From: Moniliella sp. 'wahieum' | Taxonomy: Eukaryota | Assembly (NCBI GenBank): GCA_003971905.1 | Contig: RSEE01000009.1 | Coordinates: 744,001 to 808,000 of the forward strand | Reading direction: 5' to 3' | Length of the DNA stretch: 64,000 nucleotides | Shown: positions 1 to 62,906 of the stretch, one piece after another | Numbering within the stretch: the first letter of the stretch is position 1 | Layout: the number at the start of each line of letters is the position of its first letter | Notes under the pieces: generated by a model | Seen by the model: the letters and a program-made list of their open reading frames with translations, nothing else | Told to the model about the DNA's origin: nothing | Databases searched by the model: none | Program-made: the position numbers and the translations under genes

Positions 1-789
1 TGACGGGACAACATCGAATACTGACAATGGCAAAGTGCAAAACACTCTCAACGTTCAAAACACTCTCCCGAAGAGGGTTTTGGTGTGTCCCTTTATCAAG
101 TAACGCGTATAATGCGCGTAAATTGTAACACCGTCGTCTTCGGGATATATACTACCTGCTACCGCTTATCCCCTCATTAATCATCACACATGTCGCATGC
201 ATTATTGCCAAAACTCTCCTCAGACTGTTTGCTGTGGATGACGCCGATATGATAATAGTAGCCTGTGGGCAGTAGTGACATCATTGAAGCAACAGTCGCA
301 TTTTAGTGATATCAAAATGACCGACAACAGCGGCTCAGGCAGGCGACCATACGCAATGACTCTAGTGACTGCAGGATCTCATCGCCAAGCCCGGGGCCGA
401 CGCGGTATTTGTTATAGATACCTCAGGACGTGCGTGATAGCTCTTCTCGGTGACGGTCATTAGATTGATCCGAAAGTCCAGAGCCGCGTAACGGGGGGAT
501 GTACATGTAATCCGCGGGAATTCGAAAGGGATAGAAAGATGAGTTTTTCAGAGTATCTTTCTATTTTTCTTCCTCGCGGCGTTACAACGGTGCAATGGTT
601 CTTTCGTCTTCCCCGGTCATGCATCATGCATCATGGGATTATAGGGTCACCCACCACACAATGACGACTGTGTTGTTCCTATTTAATTTCCTTTGTGGAG
701 AGCGATACCATACTATTCCTCTCCGGTCTCTCACTTGTATATATATCCTTCTCGTCTTGTCCGCGCCAAGCCAATTATTAAACCAGTGG

Positions 790-1545
790 AGTCGCCAGCA
801 GGTCAGGACCCTCTATTGGTGCCTGCCATTCCCTTCCCCACCGGATGTACTAGCACGTGAGAATGAGAGAGGTATAATATAGATAGGCATATTGTGAGCG
901 ACGGTGAACGTTGAACCATCTCCAAGGCTCATCATGCATCACCCGACGACGGTTTTTCAGCCCCCATACAGGTTATTGGCTGTCTTCGTGGCATAGTATC
1001 CGTGCGTCGTCATGACCAAGGGGAATAAAGCTTGAAGACTCTTCAGCGTGCCCCTGGTGCTTGACATTCTTGTCGCATTTCACTTGTTCCAACAGTCATC
1101 GAAGTAACTCCAACTCGTTATTGTACCGGCATTTCAAAAGACGTTACGGTTCCCTCGTGTACCACCTTCCGGTACGCAATCGTCGCCTCGAGTCCTTTGT
1201 GCCCGGATCATGCAAAATTAAGATATGGTTCACTCCTATTCCTGATCCTCCAAAGGCTCTAGGTCCCAACATCACTCGATCGCTATAATATTCTGTGATG
1301 TACGCCTCAGCGCCTGTCGCCCATGCCTCTCGTCTCTCGTCTTCCTCTGGACCGTAGACTCGTTATATTGTACATATATCAGTGTCCGTGTTGATGAGCA
1401 GTGTGTAACGATGGGGGGCGGTGAAAAGGTGAATCATGAGATGGAATAAAACTGTAGACAACGGAACGGTGGGACAGTGGACAATGGGACGATGGAGCAG
1501 TGGCCCAGCGCCCAATATAAGCCGGACCGTGGGCCCTGTAGTCTG
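790..1545 (-). mobile_element. Decayed, internally deleted copy of the CRE-like non-LTR retrotransposon (5' motif joined to endonuclease/3' region)
   Basis: 978-1350 aligns colinearly with the copy at 1933-2260 (e.g. gctgtcttcgtggcatagtatcc vs gctgtcttggtgccgtagtatcc; cttgacattcttgtcgcatt vs cttagcgttcttgtcgcatt). tcaggaccctct at ~803 matches ~1789. The reverse complement of 1520-1545 (gactacagggcccacggtccgg) resembles the element 5' motif (gaccaccgggcctacggcccgg). Ends approximate. Confidence 0.65.
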
Positions 1546-1654
1546 CTATTAGTTTACTATCTCAGAAAGGCTGTAGTACTGAGAGGTGGAAAGGTTCCCA
1601 ATATCTCGCTGGAGCTGGACCGAACAAGCCAAAAAGAAAATGACTTTTTTGCTA

Positions 1655-2545
1655 CTCTGCATCCACATATCATTGACAGAGCTTAAAGCTGGGACAGGGG
1701 AAACGCCACGCCTAAACCGACCCGTTCATCTTGCGTGTTTGCTTGGTAGCGCCACCCCTGTTAGGGAACCAGGGGGATCGCCAGGATATCAGGACCCTCT
1801 GGTTCTCGCCATCCGGTCCCGTACCCTAGGAAGCGCGTGTGGACACGAATGAACGTGGTTGACATCCGAGCGAGGAACCATTTCCATTGAGACTGAGTAG
1901 CCAAATCCTCCCAATGCGCAAACATCTTGCCCGCTGTCTTGGTGCCGTAGTATCCTCTCGCGTCGTCAAAACCAGGGGGAAAAACGGCTCTTGAGTGCGT
2001 TCCTGGTACTTAGCGTTCTTGTCGCATTCTGATTTTGCTCCATCAGCAGCCGAAGGAGTTCCTTCTCCCGGCGTTCCAAAGGCGTCACAGTACTCTTATG
2101 TACCACTCTCCGGTACGCGCGCTCTGCGCCTCCTGCGATCCGGTGCCGCGCAGCGTGTAGTCCACCACCATTCCGGATCCTCCAATTGCTCCGGGCCCCA
2201 TCACCCGGTATAGTCGGTGCGCAGTGCCCTCCGCCCGCCTCGACCCATCCTCTTCCTCCACAGTAGGTTCGTTGCGGACGTGGGTGTCGGGGATGGAGCG
2301 CACGAGCTGGAGAATGGGCACCTGCACTGCCTCATGCAACGCACCAAACTTGGCTTGGGAGCGGATGCAAGCCATGATGTGCTCCAGCGAGAGGACATAA
2401 CGCCGCACTTGCACATGCTGCGCGTGGAGCGGCACAGCGTGCGGAGCTGGAGACCAACCTGAACCTGCTGGTCAGAGAGCTTTGAGGCACGGGGCGGAAG
2501 GAATGGCGGAGAAGAGCCAATTGTGGCTCAGCTGGTTGCGGTGCT
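1655..2545 (-). mobile_element. 5'-truncated copy of CRE-like non-LTR retrotransposon (zinc knuckle, RLE endonuclease, 3' UTR)
   Basis: The reverse complement closely matches ~14965-15835. Translations include CKCGVMSS/LEHIMAC..HEAV and RTDY..MGPGAIGGSGMVVDYTLR. The 3' UTR ends in aagctctgtcaatgatatgtggatgcagag. Confidence 0.88.
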
Positions 2546-5094: not shown

Positions 5095-5548
5095 GCGTAC
5101 CGGAGGGTGGTGCACGAGAGCACCGTGATGCCTTTGGAACGCCGGGAGAAGGAGCTGCTTCGGCTGCTGGAGCAGAATCAGAATGCGACAAGAACGCCAA
5201 GTACCAGGAACGCACTCAAGAGCCGTTTTCCCCCGGTTTTGACGACGCGAGATACTACGGCACCAAGACAGCTGGCAAGATGCTTGCGCACTGGAAGGAT
5301 TTGGCTACTCAGTCTCAATGGAAATGGTTCCTGGCTGGGATGTCTACCACGTTCATTCGTGTCCACACGCGTTTCCTAGGGTACGGGACCGGATGGCGAG
5401 AACCAGAGGGTCCTGATATGCGGGCGATCCCCCTGGTTCCCTAAGGGGTGGCGCTACCAAGCAACACACGCAAGATGAACGGGCCGGTTTAGGCGTGGCG
5501 TTTCCCTGTCCCAAGCCTTAGCTCTGTCAATGGTATGGATGCAGAGTG
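5095..5548 (+). mobile_element. Short 5'-truncated copy of CRE-like retrotransposon (ORF C-terminus + 3' UTR)
   Basis: Matches 15388-15835. Encodes ECDKNAKYQERTQEPF..YYGTKTAGKMLAHWKDLATQSQWKWFLAGMSTTFIRVHTRFLGYGTGWREPE and shares the 3' end ctctgtcaatggtatggatgcagag. Confidence 0.88.
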
Positions 5549-5559
5549 GTTACCCGGTT

Positions 5560-5945
5560 ACGCCCAGTCAGAACCCGACGAACCAATGAATGTTTCCGTA
5601 CCGCTGATCGCTGATCGCTGATAAGAGAGGTAGGGTTACGCCAGTTACCGGTGATCTCACCGGTTATCGGTTCTGCGGATGCGTGCCGATGCATGACTGT
5701 GGTGCATGATGCATGATGACGCCGATGGGGGGCTGAGGCTCAGCTGCGCAGGCCCACTGATCGTGATCGATGATCATCGATTGATTGATTACGGATTGAG
5801 GATGTGCGCAGAGGGCGCTGCGCTGCACGGCACTGCACTGCACGGCACCTGTGCACGCCTGGTCGGCGCTACGCTGAGCTCAGCGCCGGCGATGGCATCG
5901 AGGCCGCTCAGCCCCTCAGCCGCTCAGCCCATCATGCATCATGCG
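5560..5945. repeat. Cluster of 7-bp-period quasi-palindromic microrepeats upstream of BSD2
   Basis: gctgatcgctgatcgctgata (~5603), tgcatgatgcatgatg (~5703), gatcgatgatcatcgat (~5765), gctgagctcagc (~5873), catcatgcatcatg (~5930). Confidence 0.8.
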
Positions 5946-8128: not shown

Positions 8129-11100
8129 ATGCCACGGAGAACACGCGCTGCTGCCGCCTCGCCCGAGGGCGACACGCAGCCCCACCTCCCCTCCGATGGC
8201 CACGAATCCACCCCAGACACGTTCCCCGGCGAGAGCAGCCCTGCCACCGCTCCACCGCTCCACCCTCACTCCCGTCCACGCCGCATCCGCATCACAGCCC
8301 ACTCTTCCGGAAGCCAACAGGCTCAGGCTCAAGCCTCCCTCGAGCCAGGCTCCCCGCACGCTTTCACTGACCCCGATCCTCCCGGCCTCGCTGATGACGA
8401 GCCTGTCCACACCCGCACGCTTCCTCGCGCGCTGCTTCGCGCATCGCCTCCACAAACTATCCAATCCGCACGAGTCCGACCCTGACGCCGATGCCGACCC
8501 TGACGCCGATGCCGATGCCGATGCCGATGCCGATGCCGATGCCGGCCGATGCCGATGCCGATGCCGATGCCGATGCCGATGCCGATGCCGATACTGATCG
8601 TGACAGAGAGATGGCGAAGGTGATCATGGGGACGATTATGTGAATGAGGACGAAGCGCAGGCCGGTGTGCGCACCACTAGAAACGGGCGAATCACTCGCC
8701 GGTCGCAAGCATTTCACGCCAACAACGCTGATAACCAAGCGGACGAGACGGACGACAATGATGATGGCCCTTCTCACCCTTCGTCGGTCCAAGCGAGACT
8801 CGACTAACATGCACAATATGGACGCAAACGATATGGACGATGAAGATATGGGACCGATCCTAAGGGCCCGCACGCGCCGTCGCAGCTCACAGCGCACCTC
8901 TGATGACCAAGAGCAGCCTCGGCGGACGAGTACGGCGCGCGAGGGTCCAAGAGCTGGCGCGCACACGCAAGGCGGCGCTCAAAAACAAGAGCGCGCAATA
9001 TCAAGGGCCTCGGTACAGTCGTGCTACCAGCGCCGAGGAACCTGAGGATGACGAGGATGGGCCCGTGGTTGGCGGGCACCGACTCCGCAGTCGAAATAAG
9101 CCCAGAGGGAAGCCCAAGAAGAGCAAGGTTCGCCTGTCGGACGAGGAAGACTTTGTTAGTAGCGACGCGGCCAGCGCCACCTCCACCGAGTCAGAAGCGC
9201 TTGATATGACTGCTTCAGAGGAGGAGGTACCCGAGAGCCAAGGTATGCGCCTTCGGGCCCGCAAGGAGGTCAACTATACGGCCCCCCAAGTGGTTGCACC
9301 CAATGCCGGTTCCCCGCGTCGTCCTCGCCCCTACACGGGACTTAATGGCCCAGATGGGCTAATCCGGGCGCGCAACGCGGCGGTGGCGACCTTCCTTTTG
9401 GTGGAGCAGCGACCTGGGACCAATTGCCCAAGTCCATGACGGGAAAGGACCTAGCCCGTGCGTTTGGTGAGCGCACAGAGTCTTCGGATAGCGACGACTA
9501 TGCCAAAAAGACCCGAGCTGGGGGGAAGGGGAAGCTTCCTGGGGTTGGGCTGCGGGTGCCTGGAGCCATCCCAGGCGGCTTGTTGGGCAATGGAGATGCC
9601 GGGGGGACGGGGGTGCAAGGCGATCTGTCAGGGAATGGTGCAGCAGACACAATGGGTCGATTGAAGACGGGTGGTGACCCCATGGCGGATATTGATCCCC
9701 TGGGAACCAACATGCAAGTCGACTTTGATGCGGTCGGAGGCCTGGATGACACATTGCAACAACTCAAGGAAATGGTCACTCTGCCTCTCCTTTACCCTGA
9801 GCTGTACCAGCGCTTCCACATCACCCCGCCCGAGGCGTCCTCTTCCACGGCCCCCCGGTACAGGTAAAACACTTGTGGCCCGTGCACTGGCCGCGAGCGT
9901 ATCGGGGACCCAGCCAACTGTTCCCGACGCCAAGGAGGCATCCACTTCACAAGCTACCGAGGGCGCTTCTACTTCGACCGACCGGCCGGCACCTCAAGCT
10001 GTACAAGAAGGCCAAGGCCAGAAAGTTGCATTCTTTATGCGCAAGGGCGCCGACGTTTTGTCCAAATGGGTTGGCGAAGCGGAGCGGCAGCTCCGCCTTC
10101 TCTTCGAAAGCCAAACGGTCCCAGCCTTCGATCATCTTTTTGACGAGATTGATGGTCTTGCTCCTGTACGGAGCAGCAAGCAGGACCAGATACATGCTTC
10201 CATTGTGTCCACTCTTCTCGCCCTTATGGACGGTATGGACGGTCGTGGTCAAGTGGTTGTCATTGGTGCTACCAACCGACCCGACTCGGTCGATCCTGCT
10301 CTTCGTCGCCCTGGGCGATTCGATCGCGAGTTCTATTTCCCCCTGCCCTCTCTGCCGGCCCGCGAGTCCATCTTGCGTATCCATACGCGCAAATGGGACC
10401 CTCCCCCTGACCCAGCGATGCTCCATCGGCTTGCTGAACTCACCAAAGGCTACGGCGGTGCTGACCTGCGAGCCCTCTGCACTGAGGCGGCACTTAACGC
10501 CGTCCAGCGCACTTATCCCCAAATCTACCAGACCACGAACCGCCTGCTGCTTCATCCTGAGAACGTCAAGGCAACGCCTAAAGACTTTATGCTGGCCATT
10601 AACAAGATTGTTCCTTCCTCAGCGCGCTCTGCTTCTTCCCAAGCCACGCCCTCTCAGACCACCTCAAACCTCTTCTTGCCGATGCAGAGACGGAAGCACA
10701 GAATATGTTGGAAACGCTCTTGCCGCCCGCCAAGCAGCGTACTGCATTGGAGGAGGCTATGTGGGAAGACCCGTCGCCCCACCTTGGGGGGGACACGTTC
10801 AGTCACGAAATTCTCCTGCAACAGTTTTCTTCCCTCCGTGTCTATCGCCCCAGGATGCTGATTCATGGTTCTGGCGGAAATGGACAGAAGGAGATTGCAC
10901 GGGCATTGCTGTACAAGTTGGAAGGATACCACGTCTCCAGCTTAGACCTCCCGGCCTTGTTAGGCGATTCCAGCCGCCCCCGACACAGCTTTGGTCCAGC
11001 TCTTTGTTGAAGCACGGCGGCATAAACCAGCGGTGCTCTTTGTGCCTTCGCTCCAGTCTTGGACGATTGAGACCATTCCCCGATCTACGATCACTCTTAT

Positions 11101-12905
11101 GCGTTCGCTGCTTGATGGTTTGGCTACTGATGAACCGGTGTTGCTCCTTGGCGTGGCCGACTGTCCTCGGGAGGAGCTCGATCCTGAGGTGGCAGGGTGG
11201 TTTGCTGAGCGGGGAATGAGGCTTGAACCGCCCTCGCAGGCGAAGCGTCATGCTTTCTTCTCGCCTCTCCTCTCCTACCTTGCTCAGCCCCCGCCTTTCT
11301 TCCCTGGTGGTGTGCCCAAGGTCCGCCGCATTCTACCCGACCTTCCATTGGCTCCCGCTCTGCCGCCGCGTCAACCGACCAAGGCAGAGTTGCAGGAGCA
11401 AATTGCTTCGGACGAACGATTGCTGGAGCAACTCAAATTCAAACTAGGACCTGTCCTTGCAGAATTGCGCAAGAAGTTCAAAGTGTTCACCAAGAACGTC
11501 TGGGTACGCATCCCCCGCTTATTAGGTGCCCTGAATGCGAAGCTGACGTTGATGTGCAGGAGGAGTACAATCTCACCTATCTGACTTCTAACTTCCCCTG
11601 GAAACGCGAGAAGGGGCAGTACATTCTGGACCTTCCCTACGACAAGTCCCCCGAGGAGATTGAAAAGAACCGTCGTGCCCGGGCTGCCGCCAAGCGGGCA
11701 GAGACGATGCGGAAGAAGCAGGCCAAGCAGAGCCGACGGATCTCCATCCACCAGCTGACCAACCCAACTCCAGACTCCGCCTCTGGCCTGGATGGGAACG
11801 GGGAGGAAGCGAATGGCCAAGCCCAGTCGAATGGTCATGCCATTGCCGCAGAGGGCGATGTGGCTACGGGCGAAACCGCTCCCCTTGCGGCTAATCCAAC
11901 GATTTCGGGCGATCGGGGGGAGAATGAGTCTCCACTGGACGTGTCGATGCAGGAAGCCGGCGCTGAAGATGCCGAGGCGAACAAAGATGTGGACGAGGTA
12001 ACGGCGGCAGCACAAGCAGCTGATGAGGAGGAGGCCGATACGATTACCTGGCAGCGCACTGTGCTCTACACGACAACGCTGGAACGGATGCAGAAAAAAC
12101 TGTACTATGACCAGTACATGTGTGTATCGGCCTTTGTCCAGGACCTCCAACAGATCACACACAACGCGCGAGGCGGCCGAAGTGGTGGATGGCGAGCGGG
12201 CTCTCAAGGCGCACCAGATGCTCAACATGGCCAGCATCCTCCTCGACCAATTTGTCGAGCCTGCCTTCCGAGCCGAGTGCGAACGCATGGCAGTCCGAGT
12301 GGCCCAGCGCCAGTTGGCTGAGGGGTCGAAGGAAAAGGAAAAGAATGAGGAGGAGGAAAAAAAAAGGGCAAAGGCAAAGACAAGGGCAAGGAAAATGAGA
12401 ACGACAAGGGCAAGGAAAATGAGAAGGAAGAGAAAAGGAAAAGGAGCAGGAACAAGCTACTGCCCCAGTACCAGGGAGTGTGCCCGGCGCGGACCAGGTT
12501 GAGATGGGTCCCACTGCCCCCGTCCCTATCGGCCCAGGGACTGTAAGCCCCCCAAGACTCAACGGCTTCAAACGCCTGCATGATGACGGGCCAGAGGCGA
12601 CGTTGGCGTCCAAGAGAACCCGCTTGGTGGAGCTCTTGTCCCCTGCGCCCACAGCCGAAGCCCCAGCTGTTGTCCCTGAGCATCGCCCGTCTTGTCCCCC
12701 TCTGGTCGCTGAGGTGCAAAGCAAGCTCGATGGTCTGGAAGGGTTTAGTGTCGAGGAACTCGAAGCGGTGCGAGCGGCGTGCTTTGACCGGCTCTGGGCG
12801 CAGCGATCCAGCTGGGATCGAGACCCTGTGGCGCGGTCCATGGTGCAAGCGATTGCCCAGGCAGTCAGTGCATGGCAAAGCCGATTGGAGCGCGAGGTGG
12901 AGTAG
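8129..12905 (+). CDS. YTA7: Yta7/ATAD2-type AAA+ ATPase with bromodomain (histone chaperone); several frameshifts, start approximate
   Basis: DPMADIDPLG, VGGLDDTLQQLKEMVTLPLLYPE, Walker A (G)PPGTGKT, FFMRKGADVLSKWVGEAERQLRLLF, DEIDGLAPVRSSKQDQIHASIVSTLLALMDGMDGRGQV, SRH DPALRRPGRFDREFYF. Second degenerate AAA (VYRPRMLIHG) and bromodomain-like C-terminal part. Intron 11504-11559. Confidence 0.92.
8479..8592 (+). repeat. (GCCGAT)n hexamer microsatellite encoding an Asp-Ala tract in the acidic N-terminal region of YTA7
   Basis: Tandem gccgat run visible at 8505-8592, preceded by gaccctgacgccgat variants. Confidence 0.9.
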
Positions 12906-13769: not shown

Positions 13770-15835
13770 GAACCACCGGGCCTACGGCCTGGTCAGCTGG
13801 GGCTTTGCCCCAGCTGCCGTTCCCCCTTCGCCACCGTAGCCACCGTTCCACCGTCGCCAACACCGGCATAGAGAAATAATATCACCGATGCGTGCTGCTG
13901 GCTGTGGGTGGGGGTGGTGTGGGGTGGCGTGGAACGTGGCACGGGGCAGCTGATGTAAAAAGTGCACAGGGCGAATGGAGGAATAATATACAGCCACGTC
14001 GCCATGCTCGACTTTACCAACGCGTTCAACACCGTGCGCCGTCGCACACTCGCCAACGCGCTCCATGCCTACGCCCCCATCTCCTCACCTTGGGCCGATG
14101 GATCTATGGTTCCCCCACCCAGCTTTGGGTTGCGTCGGGCGGAAATGAGACCAGCATCCTGTCGGCAGAGGGCGTACGGCAGGGCGACCCCCTCGCCCCC
14201 TTTTCTTCTCCATCGCAGTGCGGCCCACGCTAGAGAAGTTGAGAGATGCTCTGCCACCGGGGCACCTGGTGATGGCATACCTGGACGACATTACGATTTT
14301 CGGTCCAGGGCCAGGCATTACCGGCCAAGCCGCGGAGATTTTGGAAGACGACGCGTCAGGCCTCAAGCTCACCTGCGCAAGTGTGTCGAGCGGGACCGGG
14401 ACCAGATTCGGGAGGATGGTCTGCAGGCTCTGGGCACTTGTGTGGGAGGGGTAGACTGTCGTCGATCGTGGCTCCGGGCCCAACTGGCCAGTCTGAGGGA
14501 GAACATGCCTAAGTTTGATGGCATCACCCGCCAGGGACGCCTCTTACTATGGCGGCTCAGCACTCAGACCAAGCTGCGCTACCTGCTCCGCGCCATGCAG
14601 ATGGAAGGAGAGCTAGACGACGTGCTGGCCGAGATTGATGCCTTCATCTGTACGGAGTTCAGACGGATCCGGGGCGACGAGGATCCCCAAGGTGCCAAGG
14701 ACGACCACTTCGACATGCTCATGAGCCTGCCCCTCCGGCTGGGAGGATGTGGCAGCCCGCTTTACTCGTATATCGCGCCCCACGCCCGTGCCGCGGCCAA
14801 CGAGGTCAACGACTATCTTATTACCACTTATGTTGACCGTTCGGGACCGCAAACGGCAAGGGCCAACGCATTTACGAAGCAACGCCAGCGCTGCCGCGAG
14901 ATGTGGGAGCAAAGTCGACAGGAGCTGCTCCAGAAGCTGGACGCTGCCGATGGTCGCCATGTGGTTGAGCACAGCAACCCGCTGAGCCACAACTGGCTCT
15001 CCACCATTCCGTCCGTCCGTCGTACCTCAAGCTCTCCGACCAGCAGGTCCAGGTCGGTCTCCAGCTCCGCACGCTGTGCCGCACCACGCGCAGCATGTGC
15101 AAGTGCGGCATCATGTCCTCGCTGGAACATATCATGTCTTGCACCCGCTCCCAGGCCAAGTTTGGTGCGTTGCATGACGCAGTGCGGAAGCCCATTCTCC
15201 AGCTCCTACGCTCCGTCCCGACACCCACGTCTGCAACGAACCTATGGTGGAGGAAGAGGATGGGACGAGGCGTGGACCGAGGGCACAGCGCACCGACTAC
15301 CGCGTGATGGGGCCCGGAGCACTCGGAGGATCAGGAATGGAGGTAGACCACACGCTGCGCGACACGGGATCGCTGGAGGCGCAGAGCGCGTTCCGGAGGG
15401 TGGTGCATGAGAGCACCGCAACCCCCTTGGAACGCCGGGAGAAGGAGCTGCTTCGGCTGCTTGAACAAGCAGAATGCGACAAGAACGCCAAGTACCAGGG
15501 ACGCACTCAAGAGCCGTTTTTCCCCCTGGTTTTGACGCCGCCAGGATACTACGGCACCAAGACGGCGGGCAAGTTGTTTGCGCATTGGAAGGAGTTGGCT
15601 ACTAAGTCTCAGTGGAAATGGTTCCTCGCTCGGATGTCAACCACGTTCCTCCGTGTCCACACGCGCTTCCTAGGGTACGGGACCGGATGGCGAGAACCAG
15701 AGTCCTGATATGCGGGCGATCCCCTGGTTCCTTGACCTTAGTGGCGCCCCCAAGTAACCCCCGCAAGATGAACGGTTAGCTTTAGACGTAGCGCTCCCCC
15801 TGTCCCAGCCTTAAGCTCTGTCAATGATATGGATT
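13770..15835 (+). mobile_element. CRE-clade (Cnl1/MoTeR-like) non-LTR retrotransposon with RT and restriction-like endonuclease; N-terminal ORF region missing or degenerate; longest copy in window
   Basis: 5' double-hairpin motif at 13775-13816. RT motifs GGVE, LDFTNAFNTVRR, GVRQGDPLAP, YLDDITIFG, thumb SLPLRLGGCG, HNWLSTIP. CCHC knuckle CKCG..EHIMSC..HDAV and RLE motifs RTDYRV..EVDHT..KNAKY. The 3' UTR is shared with other copies. Confidence 0.9.
13962..15708 (+). pseudogene. Frameshifted RT-RLE polyprotein ORF of the CRE-like element
   Basis: Motifs are spread over ORFs 13962-15410, 13892-14233, 14218-14454, 15095-15307 and 15244-15708. An in-frame TAA at ~13955 lies in the degenerate region just upstream. 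Confidence 0.8.
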
Positions 15836-16074
15836 CGGAAGTAGAGATGAAAGAGTCCTTCATCGATCAATCTGCAAATTTCAAGCTTCAAAAGCTGCCT
15901 CTTTGAATCAACCAGACAAGTGGCTTCCACACCTTCAGTTGCAAAACCTCCAGCCCCCCGTGGCTTCTCTCTACTGTCATAAAATACGTTTTTTATGCAA
16001 TGGCATATGTATACTTTTAGCGACGACGAACGACGCAAATAAGAAGCGTATCTATCAGCAGTCTGGGCGCAGTA

Positions 16075-16278
16075 GAGGGAGTCGGAGGTCAGATGGTACA
16101 GTACTACTGTAAACAGAAGTGCATCCGCGGCACAACCACAGACGATTGGCTGATAGAGGTGCTAACCGCGCTAGCCGAGGGAGTCGGAGGTCAGATGGTA
16201 CAGTACTACTGTAAACAGAAGTGCATCCGCGGCACAACCACAGACGATTGGCTGATAGAGGTGCTAACCGCGCTAGCC
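16075..16278. repeat. Perfect 102-bp tandem duplication
   Basis: 16075-16176 and 16177-16278 both read gagggagtcggaggtcagatggtacagtac...gctaaccgcgctagcc. Confidence 0.92.
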
Positions 16279-16624: not shown

Positions 16625-17000
16625 ACGTCCATTTCATTGACAGAGCTTAAGGCTGGGACAGGGGGAACGCTACGTCTAACCGTAACCGTTCATCTTGCGG
16701 GGGTTACTTGGAGGCGCCACTAAGGTCAAGGGTTAATAAAAGAGACCCGTTTTTTCTTTACGTAAAGTTACACAAGCATACCACCTGGCACGTTCAACCC
16801 GCGCGTTCCAGGCGGGCGCAGCCAGGCGGATGCACATGGGTGATAAAATTCCGCCCAAGGCGTAGTGGTGAATACAATTCCGCTCTCCAGCGTGGAACGG
16901 TGGAGTGGCGACGGGGGGAACGGTGGCTAAGGTGGCGACGGTGCACCAAGCACCAAGCTGGGGCGGCCCAGCTGACCGGGCCGTAGGCCCGGTGGTCTTC
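16625..17000 (-). mobile_element. Short (~375 bp) non-autonomous internally deleted derivative of the CRE-like element (SIDE-like)
   Basis: 16634-16731 is the reverse complement of the element 3' UTR (15730-15827, near-identical). 16866-16999 is the reverse complement of the 5' motif at 13770-13886. No RT sequence lies in between. Confidence 0.8.
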
Positions 17001-20954: not shown

Positions 20955-21180
20955 CCGTTGATGCATGGTGTGTGGTGCGTGGTGCGTGATGCATCTTCAA
21001 TCTTCAAGCTTCAAGTTTCAACAGCTTCAAGCTGCAAGTTTGGTTGCATATTTCAAAACTGGATGCAATATCATCATCACGCATTATCATCGCTCTTTGA
21101 TCCTCGGCCTCATCGCAAGCGTTGTGTTTTGCTGATGAACCAGGTGGGTCGTTGATGACGTTGATGTTGATCTTCAGCAT
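20955..21180. repeat. Cluster of 7-bp-period microrepeats upstream of NHP2
   Basis: cttcaagcttcaagtttcaacagcttcaagctgcaag (21002-21038); gatgcat motifs at ~20960 and ~20988. Confidence 0.7.
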
Positions 21181-23139: not shown

Positions 23140-23410
23140 CAAGCATCATGCATCATGCATCATCATCGTCATCATCGATCATCGATCGGGGCGGGCCGTC
23201 TTGCATCCGCCGGGAGCGGGGCTTGCAAGGGCGCTAGCGAGCACTAGCAGGCACTAAACGCTAAGTGCCGGAGCCCACGTGGCTACGTCAAGCTTCAGCG
23301 CTTCAGCTTCATCGATCATCGACCATCGATCATCGATCATCTGATCGTACAAACAAGCGCTTTAAATATAAAAGCGCTAAGCGCTAATTTGCGCAACGAT
23401 GCGCGTCACG
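23140..23410. repeat. Cluster of 7-bp-period microrepeats upstream of the SIS gene
   Basis: gcatcatgcatcatgcatcatc (23143), catcgatcatcgatc (23173), tcaagcttcagcgcttcagcttc (23288), catcgatcatcgaccatcgatcatcgatcat (23310), aagcgctaagcgctaa (23372), cgcgtcacgcg (23402). Confidence 0.85.
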
Positions 23411-24510
23411 CGTTGCGCGCTAAACTCCTAGCACCAGCTACTATTTTCGTTGCACCACCCACGGATGCACACACGGGGATGGCCCTTACGAAGCAGCGCC
23501 AGCGCTGTCGGAAGATGAGGAAGACGAGTCGCCATGTAGGAACTAATAATCGAGAACCTCTCAACGGGACCGATGGGCGCGACGTGGTTAAGCACAACAA
23601 TGCGTTCAACTACACTTGGCTTTCCCCTATGAATGCCATCGAATGAGCATTCGATTAAGTGTCTTGATCTAATCGACAAGCAGGTTTGGATCGGACTCCA
23701 GTTCCGTACTCTGTGGCGTTTTCCTCTTGCGCAGAAGTACAAAAGCATGGTCTGATGTCATCTCTTATTGAGCACAACCTTTTTGGCTTGTACCCGCACC
23801 CATCAGTCTAAATTCACGAGACCTCGCTGGTGCCGATCCTCAAGCTCTTGGTGCGTTTCCATGCCCCTGCACCCGCATCCACAACGAGCCGCGGGTGGAG
23901 AAGGACGATACGAGACGGGGAAGGAAGATCAGGCACATGAACTGCCGAGTGATGGTATTTGGACCATTTTGGTAGGATCACAGGAATGAGGGTGGGCCAC
24001 ATTGTACGGCACTCGGGAATAAAGGAGTCTATGATTGCGTACCTCAAACGGGGATATACACGAGGGAACCGCAACTCCTTTGGAATTCCAGGAAAAGGAG
24101 CTTCTTTGACCGTTGGAGCAAATGGAATGAGACAAGAACAACTCCAAGTACCACGGTGGCCCATTTAAGAGCCTTTCTTCCCCTTGGTCATGACAACACA
24201 CTGATACTATACCATCAAGGCGGCCGACAATGTTTGGGTACTAGAAAGAAGTAAATAACGAGTCTCATTGGAGGTATATGGTTCGCCGCCCACATATCTA
24301 CCACGCTCATTCGCATCCACGCGCGCCCCCTCCGGATTGGAAGCGAACGGCGGGACCAAAGATTTATGACCTTCCTCTGGGGGCTCCCCTGGTGCATTAA
24401 ACGAGACTTGGTGCCATCAAGCAATACATGCCGGATGTGAGCAGGTCGGTTTAGGCGCAGTGTTTCTTTGCCCCACTGGTCTGTGAAAGGTATATGAATG
24501 CAGCAGTAGG
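23400..24510 (+). mobile_element. Old, decayed 5'-truncated copy of the CRE-like retrotransposon
   Basis: ttacgaagcagcgccagcgctgtcggaagatg (23486) matches 14872. TKQRQRCRKM, gacaagaacaactccaagtacca (24131) and decayed 3' UTR ggtcggtttaggcgcagtgtttc..ctgtgaaaggtatatgaatgcag (24444-24503). Confidence 0.75.
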
Positions 24511-24572
24511 ATGTAAGCGATGTGAGATGTGAGCGTTGAACTTCAACGTTGAACGTTGAACCAGCTCTGTAG

Positions 24573-43320: not shown

Positions 43321-43989
43321 TGGGCGCAGGTGGGGCTAAGGCGGAGGGGGAAGGTGAAGAAAGAGGTGGAGGGAGAGATGGAGATGGAGATGGAGATGGA
43401 AGGGGACGGTGGGGAAGAACGACAGCCAGTAGTACATAAAATGTTCTCACGCACGCAGCAACCTCTCAAAAGTCGGAGGTAGATAGTGGCCTGTGAATAT
43501 GTAAGTTGCATGTGAATTGTGACACATGAAGGTGCGGAGGGCAGTGCGTGTGATGTATAACGCGTGACGGCACCAACACATCATCGATCGGTAGCCAACT
43601 AGTCAATCAATTATAGCAATCATCAACGTGTTCACGTTCAAGCTGCTCAAAGTTCGCGCTCACCGCCACGCGCCACGCACCACGCTCGTGCAGAAGGCAT
43701 CGCAGGCGGCAGCTTGCTTGCCAACAATTGTCAATTTTACTCCGACCTCTGAGATCTGACACATGTTTGCGCTTCAGGACCAGAGCATGCGGCAGGCCAT
43801 CGGCGTCGGCCGCCAGACACCGCTGCGTAGGCGCTTTCGACAAAGGACCGGAGAGTCTGATCGATGATCCAAGGATCCAGAACCAGTGGTGCACCAAAAC
43901 GCTCAGGCGCTCAGGGCCAGCCTGGGCCAGCGTGGGAGCCGAGCAAGACAGGCCATCAAAGTTGGCTCACTTTGGAGTGGGGGGTGTGT

Positions 43990-46900
43990 GATGGGCTCCT
44001 CACGCGTCACGCGCACGAAACACTACGTTCTAAGTTTACGCTATTTACTAAACCGGTTAAACGTTAAAACGCTAAACACTAAGTACGTTAAACGTTAAGC
44101 GTTAACCACTGCGATCGTTGGAGCATCTGCGGGAACCTCCGGAGCAGACTGGTACCCCGCTCAGCTGAAGCGTACGCGCGAAGCACTGGAGCAGCTGGAA
44201 CACAGCCAGAGAGGGCAAGAGCATGCTGCAGGTTGCCTCTAGGAACAGACTCAATGCTAATAAGCGCTTCGGTGGTACGAGCTAGCGTGCGGTTCCAGTA
44301 CGCGCTACGCATTATGCGCGTGCAGGGGTCCCGGGTAGAGAAATGTACGTTTTCTGCGCCGCCGCTTGTTGATAGTGTTGAACGTTGAATATACGTGCGC
44401 GTGAAGCTTCAAGTGAAGCTTGAGCTTAAAGTTTAAGCCAGCGGCTAGTGAAGCTAGTGACTTGCGAAGCTTGAAGTTTGAAGCTCTTGAAGCTTGAAGC
44501 TTGAAGCTTGAAAGCTACAGCGCTAGGCGCTAGAGGTTAATGTAATCCATGGACCCTTGTGGACCCCGAGTCGTTTGCCGTTGGGGATTTGCTCCCACGA
44601 TGCACGATCCCACGCCCCACCTGCCCCACCATATACTGTGGACCGGCACCTGCCTGTACCGGTCACCGGTCACCCCTGTTATATGATCATCGGTTCGTAA
44701 CGCAGTCACCTGGAGCGCCTGAGCAGCCGCTCTCCAGTTCAGGTGTACATGTCACGCATGCCATAACCGCCTCATTAATTCGACAAGCTTATTGAATTCA
44801 AGCTCAAGCTTTAAGCTCAAGCACTGCTCAAGTTGAGCCTCAAGCTGCTCAGCCTGAGCGCTCAGGTCAAGCTCAAGGTTCAACTTGAATTTCAACACGT
44901 TCAACGTTAACGTTCACTTGAACTTCAAGCTGCAAGCTTCACGCGTCACACGTCACGCGTCACGCTGCTCAAGCTCCCAAGCTTCAAGTGAAGCTTCAAA
45001 TCCAGCAATGCATCATGCATCATGCATTATGCGCATCGTGTGAGCAGCTGGAGCAGGACTGAGCGCACCGAGCGGCTCAGGCTGAGCTCAGCTCTGGGCT
45101 CTGGGCTCCAAATTTCCGACACCCAATCATTTACATCACTACTAGTCAGTACTCAGTTACTCAGTCCCAATTAAGGCTCGAGTCAAACCCCTGGCCTCCT
45201 TCGGCCCCTGTTACTTGTTGCAGCAAACCCCAAAAAATGCATGGAACAAAAGCACAAAAAATGTGGCAGTTCTGGCTGCTCTGGCGCTGTTTCCGGTTGC
45301 CTGTCACATGCATGTCACATGTCGTGCATCCCCCATGTTCATGCCAATCACTTACACCCCACGTCACACGTCACCGCGTCCAACGTGTGATTTACTGATT
45401 ATTGGACTGGCTCCCCAACTAAGCGATATGCCTTTAATGGGCATAGCAGGGCATATGTGTAGCCCCTATATGCAAGATACTAGATGGCCATACAAGCCGG
45501 CCCCACCTGTCTTCTCGGAGCTGACGCGCTAACGTGTGTGACATGTGACACAGCGTTGTCCATCTTATTTCCGTGTCCACATCCCCGCATCCCGCAATTG
45601 CATTAAACACGCCAACCATTTACTATTCATCGAATTCATCTCTCAGCCACAATAAGACCACAGTGTAGAATTTATATGTTGTGCATCTCCCCGGGTTGCC
45701 GTAACGCGTAACGCGTAAGCCCTGTGATCTTATGTTTGACTTTTGACTGGAAAGCTGCTTGAGCTCGAGCTTCCTCGAGCTTTCTCATGCCTTTTTACTG
45801 AGCCAAAGTTTGAGCTTTCCGTCCAGCGTTGTTGCGCTGCGTATACTGTTCTGCCACTCTTTCTCCCCTGTGCACCCTACATGGAATCGATAACAACCGT
45901 GCCTGGACAAGCTTGACAACCCTGGCGGGCCTTGGCAGCCTGAGATGTGGTCGCATCCCGATGTCAAGGTTAAGCGGAACGGCAATCAAGGACTTTGGAT
46001 ATCAATAGACGATATAAGGATTGAATACTGTGGTGAGCGAAATAGTGCCCGTGTGTTGTTCACCCAAATCCGCTCGAGGGGGTGGGTCATTATTTTGGGA
46101 TGCAGTAGAGGGCCTTCTTTTTCCAATTGGAAAGCAACAGGCTATTAGATCCAAGCACGTGCAGGGGAGGTCACCTCTCCCAAGGATGCCCCGTACTAGT
46201 ACCTACATACGGATTCCCCACAGCCCTCAGAGACCCCCCCCCCCCACCCGTGCCGCGTGCCGCGCGTTCTAAGAAGTAACATGTAAGCTCTGCAAGCTCT
46301 AAGATCAACAAAAGGTGAGAACTGATCGATGATCGATCGACGCGGAGCAGCGAAAACGCCACCAGTAGCCGGTAGCCGGTAGCCGGTAGCCGGTAAACGG
46401 TTAAGCTTTAAACGTTAGCGTACGTTAAAAACACGGTTCACATGTTCACATCGAGCATCCGTGTACACCCCGACATGTCAACAACTGAATCTGCATGCAC
46501 AGGTCGTGCGCATGAAACAAGTCATCCTCTGCATGTAGATGCATGATGCATGATGCATGATGCATGGACGGTGGTATGTATGCACCACTTGTGCTTCGCA
46601 AGCGCGAGGAGCAGCTTATGCTTTCCTGCCATTAGAACACGCATCTGTATTTTAGCGGCACGTATATAGCGCGTAGACCTTGGCGCTTAGCCTATAATGA
46701 AACACATTTAAGGCTTCGTTAAAGTGATTCTTACTGTAGTGTTTCGAGTACTTAAACGTTAAACGTTAAGCGTAGCTCTTAGTTCTTAGTTCTAGTTCTT
46801 AGTACTCATTAGGACTTTCCTCTTCACAATTTGCAGCGTAGCCCGCCGGAGATAGACGATCATCGATCACTGATCACTGATCATCGATCATCGATCATCT
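43990..46900. repeat. Densest field of mixed 7-bp-period quasi-palindromic microrepeats (upstream of the WOPR gene)
   Basis: (CTTGAAG)x3 44486-44506, (TGTGACA)x2 45537-45550, (CGTAACG)x2 45700-45713, (GGTAGCC)x3 46371-46391, (ATGCATG)x4 46539-46566. Also GTTAAAC arrays at 44056-44104 and 46751-46770, CGTCACG at 44937-44964, GATCATC at 46858-46898. Confidence 0.9.
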
Positions 46901-47449
46901 CTAATTTCTATATCGGAGTGGGCACAGAATCCGCTAAAAACCCTATTGCTCGCCGACCTGCACGTGACGGGTGGGTGGGGGCTGATTACGCCAACAATCG
47001 ATCGGGCATATGACAAGAGTCGCGTAGTCGCATCGACGCGTCCCTCCACTACGTTAAAATGCCCCCCCCCCCCGTGCTCACTGGCGGTTCCCCATTGCCG
47101 CACCAACGCCCACACTCGCGCACAGTGTCCCTCCCATCCACGCCGAGAGTTGTAGTGTCATGCCCTCGCCCTGGTCACAAGACTGCCGACTGTCCACAAT
47201 GCTTATGTTTTGCAAGACGGATGACCACCCGACGCGTCTCTGCCCTGCCCCTAGCTCCGTTCGGATCCTCCAATGATCGGGAAGGATGGATGAAGGATGA
47301 TCGGTGGTACCGAGGATGGTGGGCTCGATCCATGCAACATGAATTACGACGACCCTGTCACAGGCGGGCCCTGCCAGGGGGCTCGCCCAGGTTTGTGGGG
47401 TACAATCCCTTATAGGTGACGGAAGGACGACTCACGGTAGTGTCGGGCT

Positions 47450-48700: not shown

Positions 48701-49884
48701 GAAGCTCAGACGAGAGAGGGAAGTGTCGCTCTGGTCAAATTCCGGTGCCTCTGGGTTTGGCACTTATGGGCATACGCCTCTTGATTGGACCAGGATACAT
48801 TCCCCTCAGGCCCTAAAGGGTGTATGGCCCTAGCTATAGTCAGCTGCCTCAGAGGAGGGAGCATTGGCTCCATCAGGGCCGACATTGCTCATCTTTTGAC
48901 ATACGTCTATAGCAGGTAATAATACATGTGGGATTGGGGCTCGGTACATGTCGTGTTTATCACTCGTGTTGCATGGTAATGCGATCTGTACGTCTATATA
49001 CTTTTGACATAAAAGGCCATCATAAATGAATGCACGCGTCTCTCGTCATGGAAAACATGCAAATACGACTGGCTTTTGAGGTGGACCATCAGCGCGCGCT
49101 AATAGGGCGCAACTTGGGAACACTTGGGGTCCTATGGGAGAGATTAGCTGTAAAGCAGCCCTCATCAGACAAAAGCCGTGGAGGTAAAGTGGTGAAGAGC
49201 CACATACGTCTTCTGATTGTTAAGCACATCCAATTGCAAAAGGAGCAATCATAGGTCAAGAAAGGTAACAGATGTGCACCTTCAGACAAAAAGGCGTTAA
49301 GCCAAAGTGAGGAGCCCAAGTCTTCGAGCAAAACATTTGAATGGGGAAAGAAACATCAGGAGACAAAGAGGAGATGGGGAGCCAAACAGGGGGTGCGCAG
49401 CCTGGAAGCACAGAACTCATCCATCCAAATAAGTCAGCGTCACTCTCCGATCAACTCAAGGACCGTGCACAGGGGAACCCTCGCCCTACCCTCTCACATC
49501 CACTGGCGCACCCCATCATGGGGATTGGAGATGTTGGGGCTGCACCAGCTCCGACGATGCCGACAAGTCGTGTTGCCTCTCAGATCTCAGAGGCACATTG
49601 TCCGCGAACGCGTAAAATAATCTAAAGGGCGCTGAAAGTCAATCTGCCTCGTCCTCCACGCCCTTGGCATATTCCTCATGATCGGGACATAATATGTTGT
49701 TGGGGAGACGTCTCATGACAACGGCCACAGCAACACCAATATACAGTGGAGACGGGCGATGTTCACCCGAACGTTCGTTCACAGGATGTTCAGGACGCTT
49801 TTATTAGGAGGCTGCATTGTCTGGGTCATAGCAGACCATATCCTTCTCCCGATTGATCGGCGCCCAGCTGAGACAGCCACACCA

Positions 49885-50325
49885 GGCGATGCATGATGCA
49901 TGATGGTTCCCATTCTGCAACGCCGTGGTGCTCTCCCGGCACAGCAGGTTCAACGTTCGCGACGTTCGCGACGTTTTGACGCGTTAACGTGTTAACCGCC
50001 TTGCAATCGAAGGTCCGACCGAGAGAGGTGGGGTTTTTGTAGTCAGCCGGTCAGGCCCGGTCATCAGTCACGTGTCCTGTGGCTGACCCGGCTGCCCAGT
50101 TCCGCTACGCGTTGCACGCTGAAGGACTGCGTGGACCTGGCGCGCAAGCCATGCGGACCTGGCGGATCCGGAGCAGACGGACGAAGCGACGGGCTGGGAC
50201 AGCCAAGGGCGGTCACCGGTCACCGGTCATGCATCATGCATGCTGGTGAGCGGAGGACCCGGGGGCACACTGCGCCCGAGCTGCAGGCAGCGGTCATCGA
50301 TCTGATCTCAGAGAGCATCATGCAT
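49885..50325. repeat. Cluster of 7-bp-period microrepeats upstream of PTC7
   Basis: gatgcatgatgcatgatg (49888), gttcaacgttc (49948), (GGTCACC)x2 50211-50224 running directly into tcatgcatcatgcatg. Confidence 0.8.
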
Positions 50326-52425: not shown

Positions 52426-53482
52426 CACTGGGCCCATTTCCTCCTCTCTCCCTTACTCTATGGTTGGTCTTCCCACCCAAGCCTCGCACGATTATGCTAC
52501 CTATCTCCCAACGCTCTTTCCCCCCTTTCACTTGTCACCCGTCACCCCTGGCTCCGGTCTACATGTCATCTCTGCCCGCCCCTACTGCCTCTTTAGGATG
52601 GGCGTGGGTGTCATTTGCATTTTCCCTTTTGTTTGTTATTCTCTAACACTTCTTTTCCTGGCAGTGTGACATGTAGTAGGCATACTGACAGAAAGCCTGA
52701 AGAAGAGCAGGATAGCTGAGGACAAGCAGAATCACTGAAAACTAGCAGAACACACAGTAGTGTTGATAACGTTGATGCCAGTGCATGGTAATGCAGCGGC
52801 AGGTCGACGATGAGGCTCAGCGTTTCAGCGCAGGCTGAGCGCCCCTGAGGCTCTATTTTGTCGTTGCTTTGATAACGTTGATACGTTAATATTCCTGTGT
52901 GTGTGGGAACTGGGCTTGGCAAAGCGACCTGAGGGAGACCTGACCTCTTGCGACGTACGGAGGCCCCCGCGGAATCGTTGATATGATCTGTTAGACAACA
53001 GAGGCTGTAGTGGTGCCTTGCAGGCATAGACGGATGAGGCCGACTGAAGTGGTTGAGGTACAGCGTACAGCAAAAATACAGCAAAAGCCCTTCGAGATAT
53101 GCCAAGGCCAAGGGAGATCTGAGATCGGACACATGATGCATGATGCCCTCGTGATGTCACATGTTACCTCACATTCTCACATTCCATCTGCTGAGCTCAG
53201 CCTGAGCCATGAGGCTCACGCGCTCACACGACCTCGTTCTCCATCGCCGGAATGATGGTGGGGGGTGGCTTGAGAATCGTCTCGGTGATTGATTGTTTGT
53301 TTTAAATGACCCTAGCCGTCATGCTTCATGATGCATGATGCTGAAGAGCCAACTCTGCCACGTGGCATATGGCTTGGGAACTTGTTTCAACGCTCGCCGC
53401 GGACTTCGCGCTCTACTTTACGTCGAAGCGGACGGACGCGGCCCCTTCCACTCACTGACTCACCACCACCTCTTTCTCCCCC

Positions 53483-55894: not shown

Positions 55895-55975
55895 GCGCGA
55901 TGATCGATGATCGAGTAACGCGTAACGTGACTGGGCTGTTCAATGTACAACGTACAACGTTCAACGTTCAACGCT
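55895..55975. repeat. Cluster of three different 7-bp-period microrepeats upstream of the PKA regulatory gene
   Basis: (GATGATC)x2 55899-55912, gtaacgcgtaacg 55915-55927, (GTTCAAC)x2 55959-55972. Confidence 0.85.
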
Positions 55976-56200
55976 TGTCGCTTGTCTGAGAGGGTTCGTG
56001 TTCAATTCTTCAATGTTCTATTCTGCTGTGTCTGAGCAGCGCTTAGGTTGCCCTTAGTATTATTGGCCAGGCCGCGGCAAGCCACCCACGACAGGAGACC
56101 TGGGCGCATTGGCTGGCCCGAGCGAGGAACCTCGTTTCAGCCTGCCATCTTCTTCGATTTTTTCCGTAGCCCCACCACCCCTTCCTGCCATCTTCTCGTC

Positions 56201-58404: not shown

Positions 58405-58805
58405 TATGGTCACCGGTCACCGGTCATCGATCATCAATCAGGTACGATCTGCGAGCCTACTGAGTTGTCCTTCGTGCCAAGGTGCGAATGACTGGTACGG
58501 CTGATGTAACCTGGAACGCGTAACGCCGGTAACCAGTAAGGCCTAAAGCTTAGGCCCAAGGCCTATGACTAAGAAACTTTCCCTCCGCCCGGTGCTGTGT
58601 GTTGCGGTCTTCCGGTTGGTTGGCTGGGGTGGCCGAGGCGGGCAGGCAGGCGGGCGGGCGCCGGGGACGCGGACGAAGGAACCCCAACCATCAGCGCCAG
58701 CAGCGCATCAGCCATCCCCACCCGTCCAGGTGCTGAGTGCGGGAGCCGCCCAGACAGTGCTCGCGCCTGTGCAATCACGCATCGGTCATCATGCATCATG
58801 CACCA
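58405..58805. repeat. Cluster of 7-bp-period microrepeats upstream of the acyl-CoA synthetase
   Basis: ggtcaccggtcaccggtcatcgatcatc (58408), aacgcgtaacg (58515), taaggcctaaagcttaggcccaaggccta (58537), tcatcatgcatcatgca (58786). Confidence 0.8.
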
Positions 58806-62577: not shown

Positions 62578-62811
62578 TGTTGAGCCATCAGGTGGCTCGT
62601 GCTTTGGCCAATGTCCTTCAGTTCCTCCTCAGGCCTAGGAGTTCCGTTGTTTTTTTCTCTCCTGTTTTTCCTTGTTCCGCAGCTTAGCCCCTGGTGGCGA
62701 CTCGCTGCTTGATGTTCCTCTGTACGCGTTGCTGGTTGGCTTACACCACCACCACCACCACTAGTGCGATTGCATCACCCTCGAGGACCATCTGGACTCC
62801 AGGTCTCATCA
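62578..62811. mobile_element. Solo LTR (family A), 234 bp
   Basis: TGTTGAG...CTCATCA with perfect 5-bp TSD CCGTT (62573-62577 and 62812-62816). Near-identical to 24573-24805, same orientation. Confidence 0.92.
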
Positions 62812-62854
62812 CCGTTGCCCTCGGGCTGAAGTGCAAAATGAGCCCCACATACTG

Positions 62855-62906
62855 CCTGAGGCCCTGAGGCCTGTGGCACATGATGCATGATGCATGATGC
62901 ATGATG
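62855..62906. repeat. 7-bp-period microrepeats (CCTGAGG and CATGATG types)
   Basis: cctgaggccctgaggcctg at 62856 and (CATGATG)x4 at 62879-62906. Related clusters at 62285-62312 and 62405-62440. Confidence 0.85.

Follow-up and report, generated by a model that had tools for sequence, protein, structure and literature searches.

A flank-complementary 7-bp insertion in a decayed non-LTR retrotransposon copy, in a window rich in period-7 arrays

A non-LTR retrotransposon family in the window

The window, by which we mean the whole 64,000-nt stretch of DNA analyzed here, has a G+C content of 56%. It includes an ORF for the AAA domain of a YTA7/ATAD2-type protein (coordinates of all features are given in Table 1). 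Ranked by identity, the best named matches of this ORF come from Ustilaginomycotina (Tilletiaria anomala, 70%; Sporisorium, 69%; Exobasidium, 67%), with one further protein at 81%; ranked by E-value, animal ATAD2 proteins come first, at 54-58% identity. Judged by identity among named matches, this single gene is closest to Ustilaginomycotina, and on this basis we treat the host as a basidiomycete related to the smuts.

Searches with blastn and alignment with MAFFT placed six pieces of one retrotransposon family in the window: three young copies (y1, y2 and y3), a short end fragment, and two strongly diverged copies, referred to below as the old copy and div. The RVT_1 profile matched a frame-shifted piece of y3 at E = 0.0018, which is below the Pfam cut-off, and two long ORF pieces of the element matched no Pfam family. 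An exhaustive phmmer search with the family's 176-aa C-terminal ORF recovered 26 proteins, one at 78% identity and the others listed at 27-38%. A word-index protein search with the same ORF, at the 'longer' setting, gave no match, and a search of metagenomes for its relatives gave 138 pattern matches with none confirmed. Pfam identified RVT_1 clearly in all three of the long relatives tested (E = 3e-20, 2e-13 and 2e-12), and found no match in a fourth relative protein (P0121, 279 aa).

In the long relatives, RVT_1 is followed by a region homologous to the 176-aa ORF (alignment A4). The conserved columns of this region (C..C..GHD..C, RTD, E.D and K..KY) matched no profile; we take them to resemble the restriction-like endonuclease of R2/CRE/NeSL-type non-LTR elements. 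The reverse transcriptase domain that such an element should carry was found. A search for target-site duplications of the copies, whose 5' junctions are uncertain, found none.

The first-pass annotation had called the old copy a decayed retrotransposon copy, and this was correct: it is homologous to y1-y3 and div, and several stops break its frame when the aligned sense strand is read by eye. Its identity to the other copies is 68-69% over the best ~200 bp (blastn) and 56-62% across the whole multiple alignment. The old copy and div are at roughly equal distances from the young copies, so the family resolves into three deep lineages. Both diverged copies are strongly insertion-biased, with 12 insertions versus 1 deletion in the old copy and 13 insertions versus 4 deletions in div. 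This bias is unusual, and it depends on the alignment at such divergence.

Table 1. Features of the window discussed in the text.
Feature	Position	Strand	Remarks
(ATGCATC)2.7 array	617-635		just past 3' end of old copy
Old copy	~690-1420 (731 bp)	-	decayed 3' fragment of non-LTR retrotransposon, region after reverse transcriptase; stops and frameshifts
Zone with 13-17 extra bases	889-916		placement ambiguous; holds period-7 run TGAACGTTGAAC (905-916), = GGTGAAC-GTTGAAC
Net 8 extra bases	924-954		includes TCATCATGCATCACCC (929-944) and period-7 run CATCATGCATCA (930-941)
18-nt quasi-palindrome GC(T)TGAAGA-C-TCTTCAGC	1030-1047		insertion plus downstream flank
Private 7-bp insertion CTTGAAG	1031-1037		equivalent placements 1028-1034 to 1032-1038
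Private 9-bp insertion GTTATTGTA	1117-1125		with flank ACTCGTTATTGTAC, resembles ACTCGTTATATTGTAC at 1358-1373
y1, young copy	1666-2545	-	alignment reference; blastn, MAFFT
y2, young copy	5095-5547	+	blastn, MAFFT
ORF, AAA domain of YTA7/ATAD2-type protein	9665-10861		protein matches; family also recognized in ESM Atlas
y3, longest copy	13900-15850	+	5'-truncated; RT motifs LDFTNAFN, GVRQGDPLAP and AYLDDI in shifted frames
End fragment of family, 104 bp	16628-16731	-	blastn, MAFFT
div, second diverged copy	23486-24520	+	distance to young copies about the same as that of old copy
Private 14-bp insertion in div	23645-23658		inverted copy of upstream flank

Private insertions in the decayed copies

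The letters on which the first-pass annotation had based its reading of the old copy were found at 1016-1046, 1972-1995, 906-924 and 1875-1886, and at ~15507-15530 on the other strand. One of its claims, a discrete 7-bp insertion at the site we place at 1031-1037, was borne out: a gap of seven bases was returned by seven of seven formal alignments, at 1031-1037 or 1032-1038. These comprised all three MAFFT alignments and all four informative pairwise settings (six were tried, of which two collapsed to a 1-base alignment and were uninformative). The placement of the gap slides by as many as 3 bases because AAG is repeated.

The seven bases are absent from y1, y2, y3 and div, the four paralogous copies. 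At the protein level, the KYxGRTxxPFxPLV block that spans the site contains no indel in 11 aligned family proteins, nine of which are relatives at 29-33% identity. Lacking a counterpart in the four copies and the 11 proteins, the insertion is therefore derived. We found neither of the two observations that the annotation had named as speaking against its reading of this site, namely the presence of the seven bases in an older subfamily, or a formal alignment with the gap somewhere else. Its view that the motifs are derived rather than ancestral also stands, as the young copies, div and the family proteins all lack them. At 1031-1037, then, this dead 3' fragment of a non-LTR retrotransposon does carry an insertion that is both derived and private to it.

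The new bases are complementary to the adjoining downstream flank. Together with it they form an 18-nt quasi-palindrome, in which GCTTGAAGA pairs with TCTTCAGC at 8 positions with one bulged T, around a perfect 13-nt core, TGAAGA-C-TCTTCA, at 1033-1045. The annotation had described the site as templated by the local flank, with AAG converted to AAG-CTT-G-AAG. Seven flank-complementary bases were indeed gained, but the template is mainly the 8 downstream bases (TCTTCAGC) and not just the upstream AAG, and the product is the 18-nt quasi-palindrome rather than a heptamer array unit.

Across its 731 bp, the old copy contains only one inverted repeat with arms of at least 6 and a spacer of at most 10, and this repeat overlaps the insertion; by hand arithmetic, the chance of such an overlap is ~(13+7)/731, or 3%. 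In our templating tests, the insert was swapped for random 7-mers and the products were scored for stem, bulge and energy. A perfect stem of at least 6 in which the insert pairs with its flank was uncommon among random inserts (p = 0.03), and the observed bulge-tolerant score of 8 was rarer still (p = 0.003), this score having been designed post hoc, with the structure already seen. The single-strand hairpin energy was not unusual relative to random inserts (p = 0.12), because a 1-nt center cannot form a loop. A search for an exact-match donor near the insert found none that was significant (p = 0.64). The arm TCTTCAGC itself differs from the other copies at two of its eight positions, at one of which all three lineages differ; its presence before the insertion is therefore assumed. 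Identity between the old copy and its relatives is only 56-69%, so the palindrome could owe its existence or its quality to substitutions that followed the insertion.

We surveyed the lineage-specific insertions of at least 4 bp, of which there were 16 (nine in the old copy, seven in div and none in the young copies). Two of them carry an inverted-flank signal by the bulge score at p ≤ 0.003, and the other 14 have p ≥ 0.18; by hand arithmetic, two such results among 16 tests would arise by chance with a probability of ~0.001. The second case is the 14-bp insertion in div, the largest private insertion of that copy. It creates ATCGAATG-AG-CATTCGAT (23638-23655), a perfect stem of 8 that was reached by none of 500 random inserts, with a hairpin energy at p = 0.005 and a bulge score at p = 0.001-0.003.

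Insertion lengths show no peak at 7 bp: private insertions measure 1, 3, 3, 4, 5, 5, 5, 6, 7, 8, 9 and 13 bp in the old copy and 1, 1, 2, 2, 3, 3, 4, 4, 4, 4, 4, 6 and 14 bp in div, so that lengths of 7 and 14 bp account for one insertion each among 25. Gaps in the young copies are 1-5 bp only. None of the 16 surveyed insertions bears a significant tandem-duplication signature (lowest p = 0.066), and the decayed copies have no overall excess of short inverted repeats (old copy, 1 versus 1.7 expected; div, 5 overlapping versus 2.8 expected). We conclude that a minority of the insertions in dead copies are inverted copies of adjoining sequence, a signature of template switching.

Period-7 arrays and the two neighboring sites

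The window contains 66 perfect period-7 tandem runs of at least two copies, compared to 3.7 expected from order-3 Markov simulations; runs of period 8 and period 9 number 10 and 9, respectively. The unit consists of a 6-bp palindrome plus one base in 36 of the 66 runs, as opposed to 10.4% of all heptamers. The palindromes are ATGCAT (12 runs), ATCGAT (7), AACGTT (4), ACCGGT (3), ACGCGT (3), AAGCTT (2) and five others represented once each. Runs with a non-palindromic unit, 30 in all, likewise greatly exceed expectation. Period-7 runs cluster in non-coding stretches, where their density is approximately one per kb, and they are densest at 43.6-47 kb. The arrays are a striking feature, and duplication with period 7 is plainly common in this genome. 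Each array holds the same center base in every unit, which points to direct duplication or slippage, since repeated inverted copying would alternate that base with its complement.

We looked for homology upstream of a 233-bp repeat pair (24573 and 62578) that could polarize the adjoining arrays and found none. A literature search for reports, from fungi or Ustilaginomycotina, of palindromic repeats with period 7 or of 7-bp duplications returned nothing relevant. Heptamer repeats have been reported in bacteria (PMC4692102); those repeats belong to another domain of life, and no mechanism shared with the arrays of the window is known. In metagenomes, 118 stretches of about four (ATGCATC) units were found; none matched the window both in G+C and in the diversity of its palindromic heptamer units. 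Certain metagenome loci, such as L013, are rich in period-7 runs of other units, and could come from unrelated organisms.

Two further sites in the old copy had been proposed as 7-bp events. For the first, GTTGAAC at 910-916, a discrete 7-bp gap was obtained in none of the seven formal alignments, which instead gave gaps of 10, 13-14 or 17 bp. MAFFT aligned gaacGTTgaacc ungapped to gagcGAGgaacc, and to GGCGAACC in div, and set a 13-14-bp gap at 891-903; the pairwise alignments opened 10 bp at 904-913 (three settings) or 17 bp at 889-905 (one setting). Split by hand as 7+3+3, the segment has 11 of 13 identities to div, versus 9 of 13 in the MAFFT version. A 7-bp reading would therefore be possible, although gap scoring does not favor it. 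When read in this way, the site is GGTGAAC-GTTGAAC, an imperfect tandem copy with 6 of 7 positions identical. The heptamer preceding the insertion is non-palindromic and pre-existing (div has GGCGAAC, and the young copies have GAGGAAC). An imperfect tandem duplication fits the letters as well as the palindromic templating that the annotation had suggested here. The run TGAACGTTGAAC is itself derived, there being no period-7 run at this position in any other copy, and its 12-nt length class is six times as common in the window as expected (11 versus 1.7).

The second site is tcatcatgcatca, at ~929, which had been reported as additional sequence. All alignments do contain a net excess of 8 bases at 924-954, but its placement varies. 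The 16-mer TCATCATGCATCACCC recurs exactly at 62301-62316, and its 12-mer core is identical to 622-633, within the (ATGCATC) array next to the old copy. Arrays of the (ATGCATC) type occur at ~13 loci of the window, and motif sharing with TCATCATGCATCACCC is therefore expected. The motifs at 905-916 and 930-941 are both derived, with one 7-bp step, a larger insertion, or a tandem duplication followed by substitutions as candidate routes.

All three sites contain a unit composed of a 6-bp palindrome plus one base (AAGCTT+G, AACGTT+G and ATGCAT+C), and these are units of the listed arrays. Placed as AAGCTTG, the insertion at 1031-1037 is identical to the repeat unit of the array found at 44486-44512, and TGAACGTTGAAC and CATCATGCATCA resemble the arrays in being runs of array-type units. 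All are below two tandem units in length, with 1.43 units at 1028-1037 and 1.7 units at both 905-916 and 930-941. The count of single 3+1+3 palindromic heptamers in the window (1042) falls within the simulated range (969-1071), so that they show no enrichment, and the 10-nt class to which AAGCTTGAAG belongs is at chance (11 seen versus 8.8 expected). Because the 3+1+3 heptamer class occurs at chance frequency, the likeness of the insertion to the (AAGCTTG)n unit is probably incidental. We think it unlikely that the process behind the insertion is linked to the heptamer arrays. The annotation's proposal that such motifs accumulate with age is not consistent with the two decayed copies: period-7 runs of at least 12 nt number three in the old copy (4.1 per kb, versus 2.8 per kb in the window) and zero in the equally diverged div.

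Origin of the insertion

The alignments and the templating tests establish that there is a gap at 1031-1037, which way it is polarized, and that the inserted bases are complementary to the flank. From these we infer that one event produced the insertion and that a polymerase switch was responsible. On balance, the insertion probably stems from a single short-range template switch and adds one more example to a known class of error. In the course of replication or of repair synthesis, the strand being extended would for a short time have used the opposite strand of the 8 downstream bases as its template, converting TCTTCAGC to GCTGAAGA with one slipped T. It would then have returned to its own template, such that 9 bases replaced ~2 and the 18-nt quasi-palindrome was left behind. 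The template-switch reading is favored by the finding that two of the 16 surveyed insertions, including the independent case in div, reach p ≤ 0.003.

Template switching yields reverse-complement copies and hairpins, according to three reports on short template-switch mutations: the four-point model of Loytynoja and Goldman (PMC5453318), a study of hairpin creation (PMC8794818) and one of a yeast lineage (PMC8604942). As in the mutations described there, the derived cluster at 1031-1037 is the reverse complement of letters that lie within a few bases of it, and the result is an inverted repeat capable of forming a hairpin; the cluster lies in non-functional DNA, and a second example is present in a sister copy. 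Unlike the cases presented in those sources, ours comprise two events, they were polarized with paralogues rather than orthologues, and one extra T is unexplained. Taken alone, the insertion is a neat if modest case of a template-switch insertion in neutral DNA, its polarity being established. The absence of an inverted-flank signal from 14 of the 16 insertions weighs against template switching.

A process specific to this genome could instead add palindromic heptamers (X3 to X3-rcX3-N-X3) to neutral DNA as 7-bp insertions and thereby seed period-7 arrays, with all three sites of the old copy as snapshots. In its favor are the excess of period-7 runs (66 versus 3.7) and of palindrome-plus-one units among them, and the identity of the insertion, placed as AAGCTTG, to the unit of one array. 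Derived period-7 runs of palindromic type lie at both 905-916 and 930-941, and their 12-nt class is overrepresented; the old copy is denser in period-7 runs than the window, and the two flank-templated insertions measure 7 and 14 bp. Against it, these two lengths occur only once each among the 25 private insertions, the young copies have gaps of only 1-5 bp, the 7-bp gap at 910-916 was recovered in none of the seven alignments, and the 10-nt seed class of the insertion is at chance. Moreover, div lacks period-7 runs of at least 12 nt, and the constant center base of the arrays fits direct duplication. We therefore regard such a heptamer process as unlikely.

A broader version is more doubtful. 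In it, a mutational process particular to this lineage would supply non-coding DNA with short palindromes and with units of 7 bp; 1031-1037 and 23645-23658 would be snapshots of single events, and the 66 arrays, mostly built on A-N-(GC or CG)-N-T palindromes, would be amplified end products. Such sequences could be made by copying from a hairpin or after a template switch, or through staggered cuts of 7 nt, possibly made by the putative restriction-like endonuclease of the retrotransposon, with subsequent filling in and rejoining. If the same process does feed the period-7 arrays, the birth of an array could be read directly from decayed repeats.

It is also rather unlikely that the insertion is an ordinary untemplated indel, with the palindrome a product of chance or of subsequent substitutions, the copy being heavily mutated. 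The hairpin energy at 1031-1037 is unexceptional, the p = 0.03 for the perfect stem precedes any correction for 16 tests, and 13-nt odd palindromes outside arrays are not rare in the window (26 versus ~17 expected); a divergence of 31-44% leaves room for later changes. Such an account must, however, accept that the only palindrome of the old copy coincides with an insertion, that div repeats the coincidence with a longer stem, and that two results at p ≤ 0.003 among 16 tests are improbable by chance.

The hairpin model of DNA-transposon excision footprints yields palindromic nucleotides. By eye, the letters fit the footprint of a cut-and-paste transposon with a 3-bp target duplication: AAG, an inverted CTT (the hairpin-derived palindromic nucleotides), one filler G and the duplicated AAG. 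This explanation leaves the longer complementarity to the downstream flank unaccounted for and requires an additional G-to-A change at 1038, and the 14-bp insertion in div would need 7-8 palindromic nucleotides. Nor did a scan of the window reveal a convincing element with terminal inverted repeats. The scan, which also sought 7-bp target duplications, returned four hits with flanking duplications of at least 6 bp, all in or beside repeats and taken as artifacts. An excision footprint is thus very unlikely.

Least credible of all is a 7-bp tandem duplication of AAGGCTC later blurred by substitutions: period-7 duplication is frequent in the genome, and when AAGCTTG followed by AAGACTC is compared by hand with the ancestral AAGGCTC, the two heptamers match it at 4 and 6 of 7 positions, respectively, but in our test the 4 of 7 identities were not exceptional (p = 0.14), three of those four are forced by the sliding gap, and the palindrome is left as pure coincidence.

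One other private insertion may have been copied from nearby sequence, in this case in direct orientation. Alternative end joining, through the 'snap-back' synthesis of polymerase theta, produces short inserts copied inverted or direct from nearby, with microhomology. Although the insertions differ from products of that pathway in that no break or repair context is visible at them, the 9-bp insertion at 1117-1125 resembles such products in its likeness to a direct-orientation sequence 250 bp away: it has an exact 9-mer match to 1358-1373 (p = 0.047), of which it may be a copy.

Insertions in two decayed retrotransposon copies

Two copies of the non-LTR retrotransposon family in the window are decayed: a 3' fragment on the minus strand (the old copy, 690-1420) and a second, diverged copy on the plus strand (23486-24520). 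When each was aligned to other copies of the element, the old copy showed 12 insertions (69 bp) versus 1 deletion (8 bp) and the diverged copy 13 insertions (52 bp) versus 4 deletions (11 bp). These alignments, which are only 56-69% identical, point to a strong insertion bias in both decayed copies, whose direction is opposite to the deletion bias that is usually seen.

Of the events in the window, the one that most clearly resembles a template switch is a 14-bp insertion private to the diverged copy (23645-23658, absent from the other copies of the element), which is an inverted copy of its upstream flank and yields ATCGAATG-AG-CATTCGAT. The old copy carries a 9-bp insertion, GTTATTGTA, that together with its flank reads ACTCGTTATTGTAC (1105-1125) and is similar to ACTCGTTATATTGTAC (1358-1373), located 250 bp away within the same copy; this may be a templated insertion in direct orientation. 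The old copy also shares an exact 16-mer, TCATCATGCATCACCC (929-944), with an unrelated intergenic site (62301-62316) that adjoins (GATCATC) repeats. With up to 2 mismatches allowed, 0.06 chance matches to this 16-mer are expected.

Period-7 runs in the window and in other DNA

Perfect period-7 tandem runs of at least 2 copies number 66 across the whole window, versus 3.7 expected, while neighbouring periods are represented by only 10 (period 8) and only 9 (period 9) runs. The repeated unit is a 6-bp palindrome plus 1 base in 36 of the 66, and these palindromic heptamers mostly follow the form A-N-(GC or CG)-N-T, then C or G. Literature searches turned up no account of such runs in fungi. Four unrelated metagenome contigs retrieved by the pattern (ATGCATC)4 (L013, L029, L032 and L051) are likewise rich in period-7 runs and contain few of period 8 (for example, 10 versus 0 in 6 kb); the excess is therefore not unique to the genome from which the window derives.

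The interval 44400-45100 is of low complexity and consists of a chain of 13-15-nt odd palindromes, including GCTCAA-G-TTGAGC, GCTCAG-C-CTGAGC and GCTTAAA-G-TTTAAGC. Further occurrences of GCTCAG-S-CTGAGC lie at 44847, 45075 and 53195, with a permuted version at 5732.

Repeat arrays and sequence features in the window
Feature	Position	Strand	Remark
Period-7 runs	43600-47000		highest density
Period-7 runs	20960-21040; 23140-23390; 24519-24561; 49578-50241; 53132-53341; 55898-55986; 58408-58802; 62287-62906		further sites
Heptamer arrays	617-635; 5602-5622 and 5703-5718; 24519-24561		near element 3' ends
YTA7/ATAD2-like AAA ATPase gene	about 8860-12500	+	reading spans several frames, taken to mean short introns
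Hexamer array (GCCGAT)18	8487-8592		beside or within the AAA ATPase gene
Hexamer array (AAGGAA), ~20 units	12329-12445		beside or within the AAA ATPase gene

Surroundings of the element copies

Heptamer arrays lie ~20-170 bp downstream of the 3' end in 3 of the 5 element copies that have one; the element may either insert preferentially at these arrays or give rise to them. No target-site duplications could be defined for the element copies. Two 3' fragments (1654-2118, minus strand; 5095-5547, plus strand) form a head-to-head inverted pair, 91% identical and 3 kb apart. Elsewhere, a 102-bp unit is perfectly duplicated in tandem (16075-16278, 100% identical); its neighbour is an end fragment of the element, inverted and 104 bp long (16628-16731). 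Among named relatives of the YTA7/ATAD2-like gene, the top matches by identity (67-70%) are from Ustilaginomycotina.
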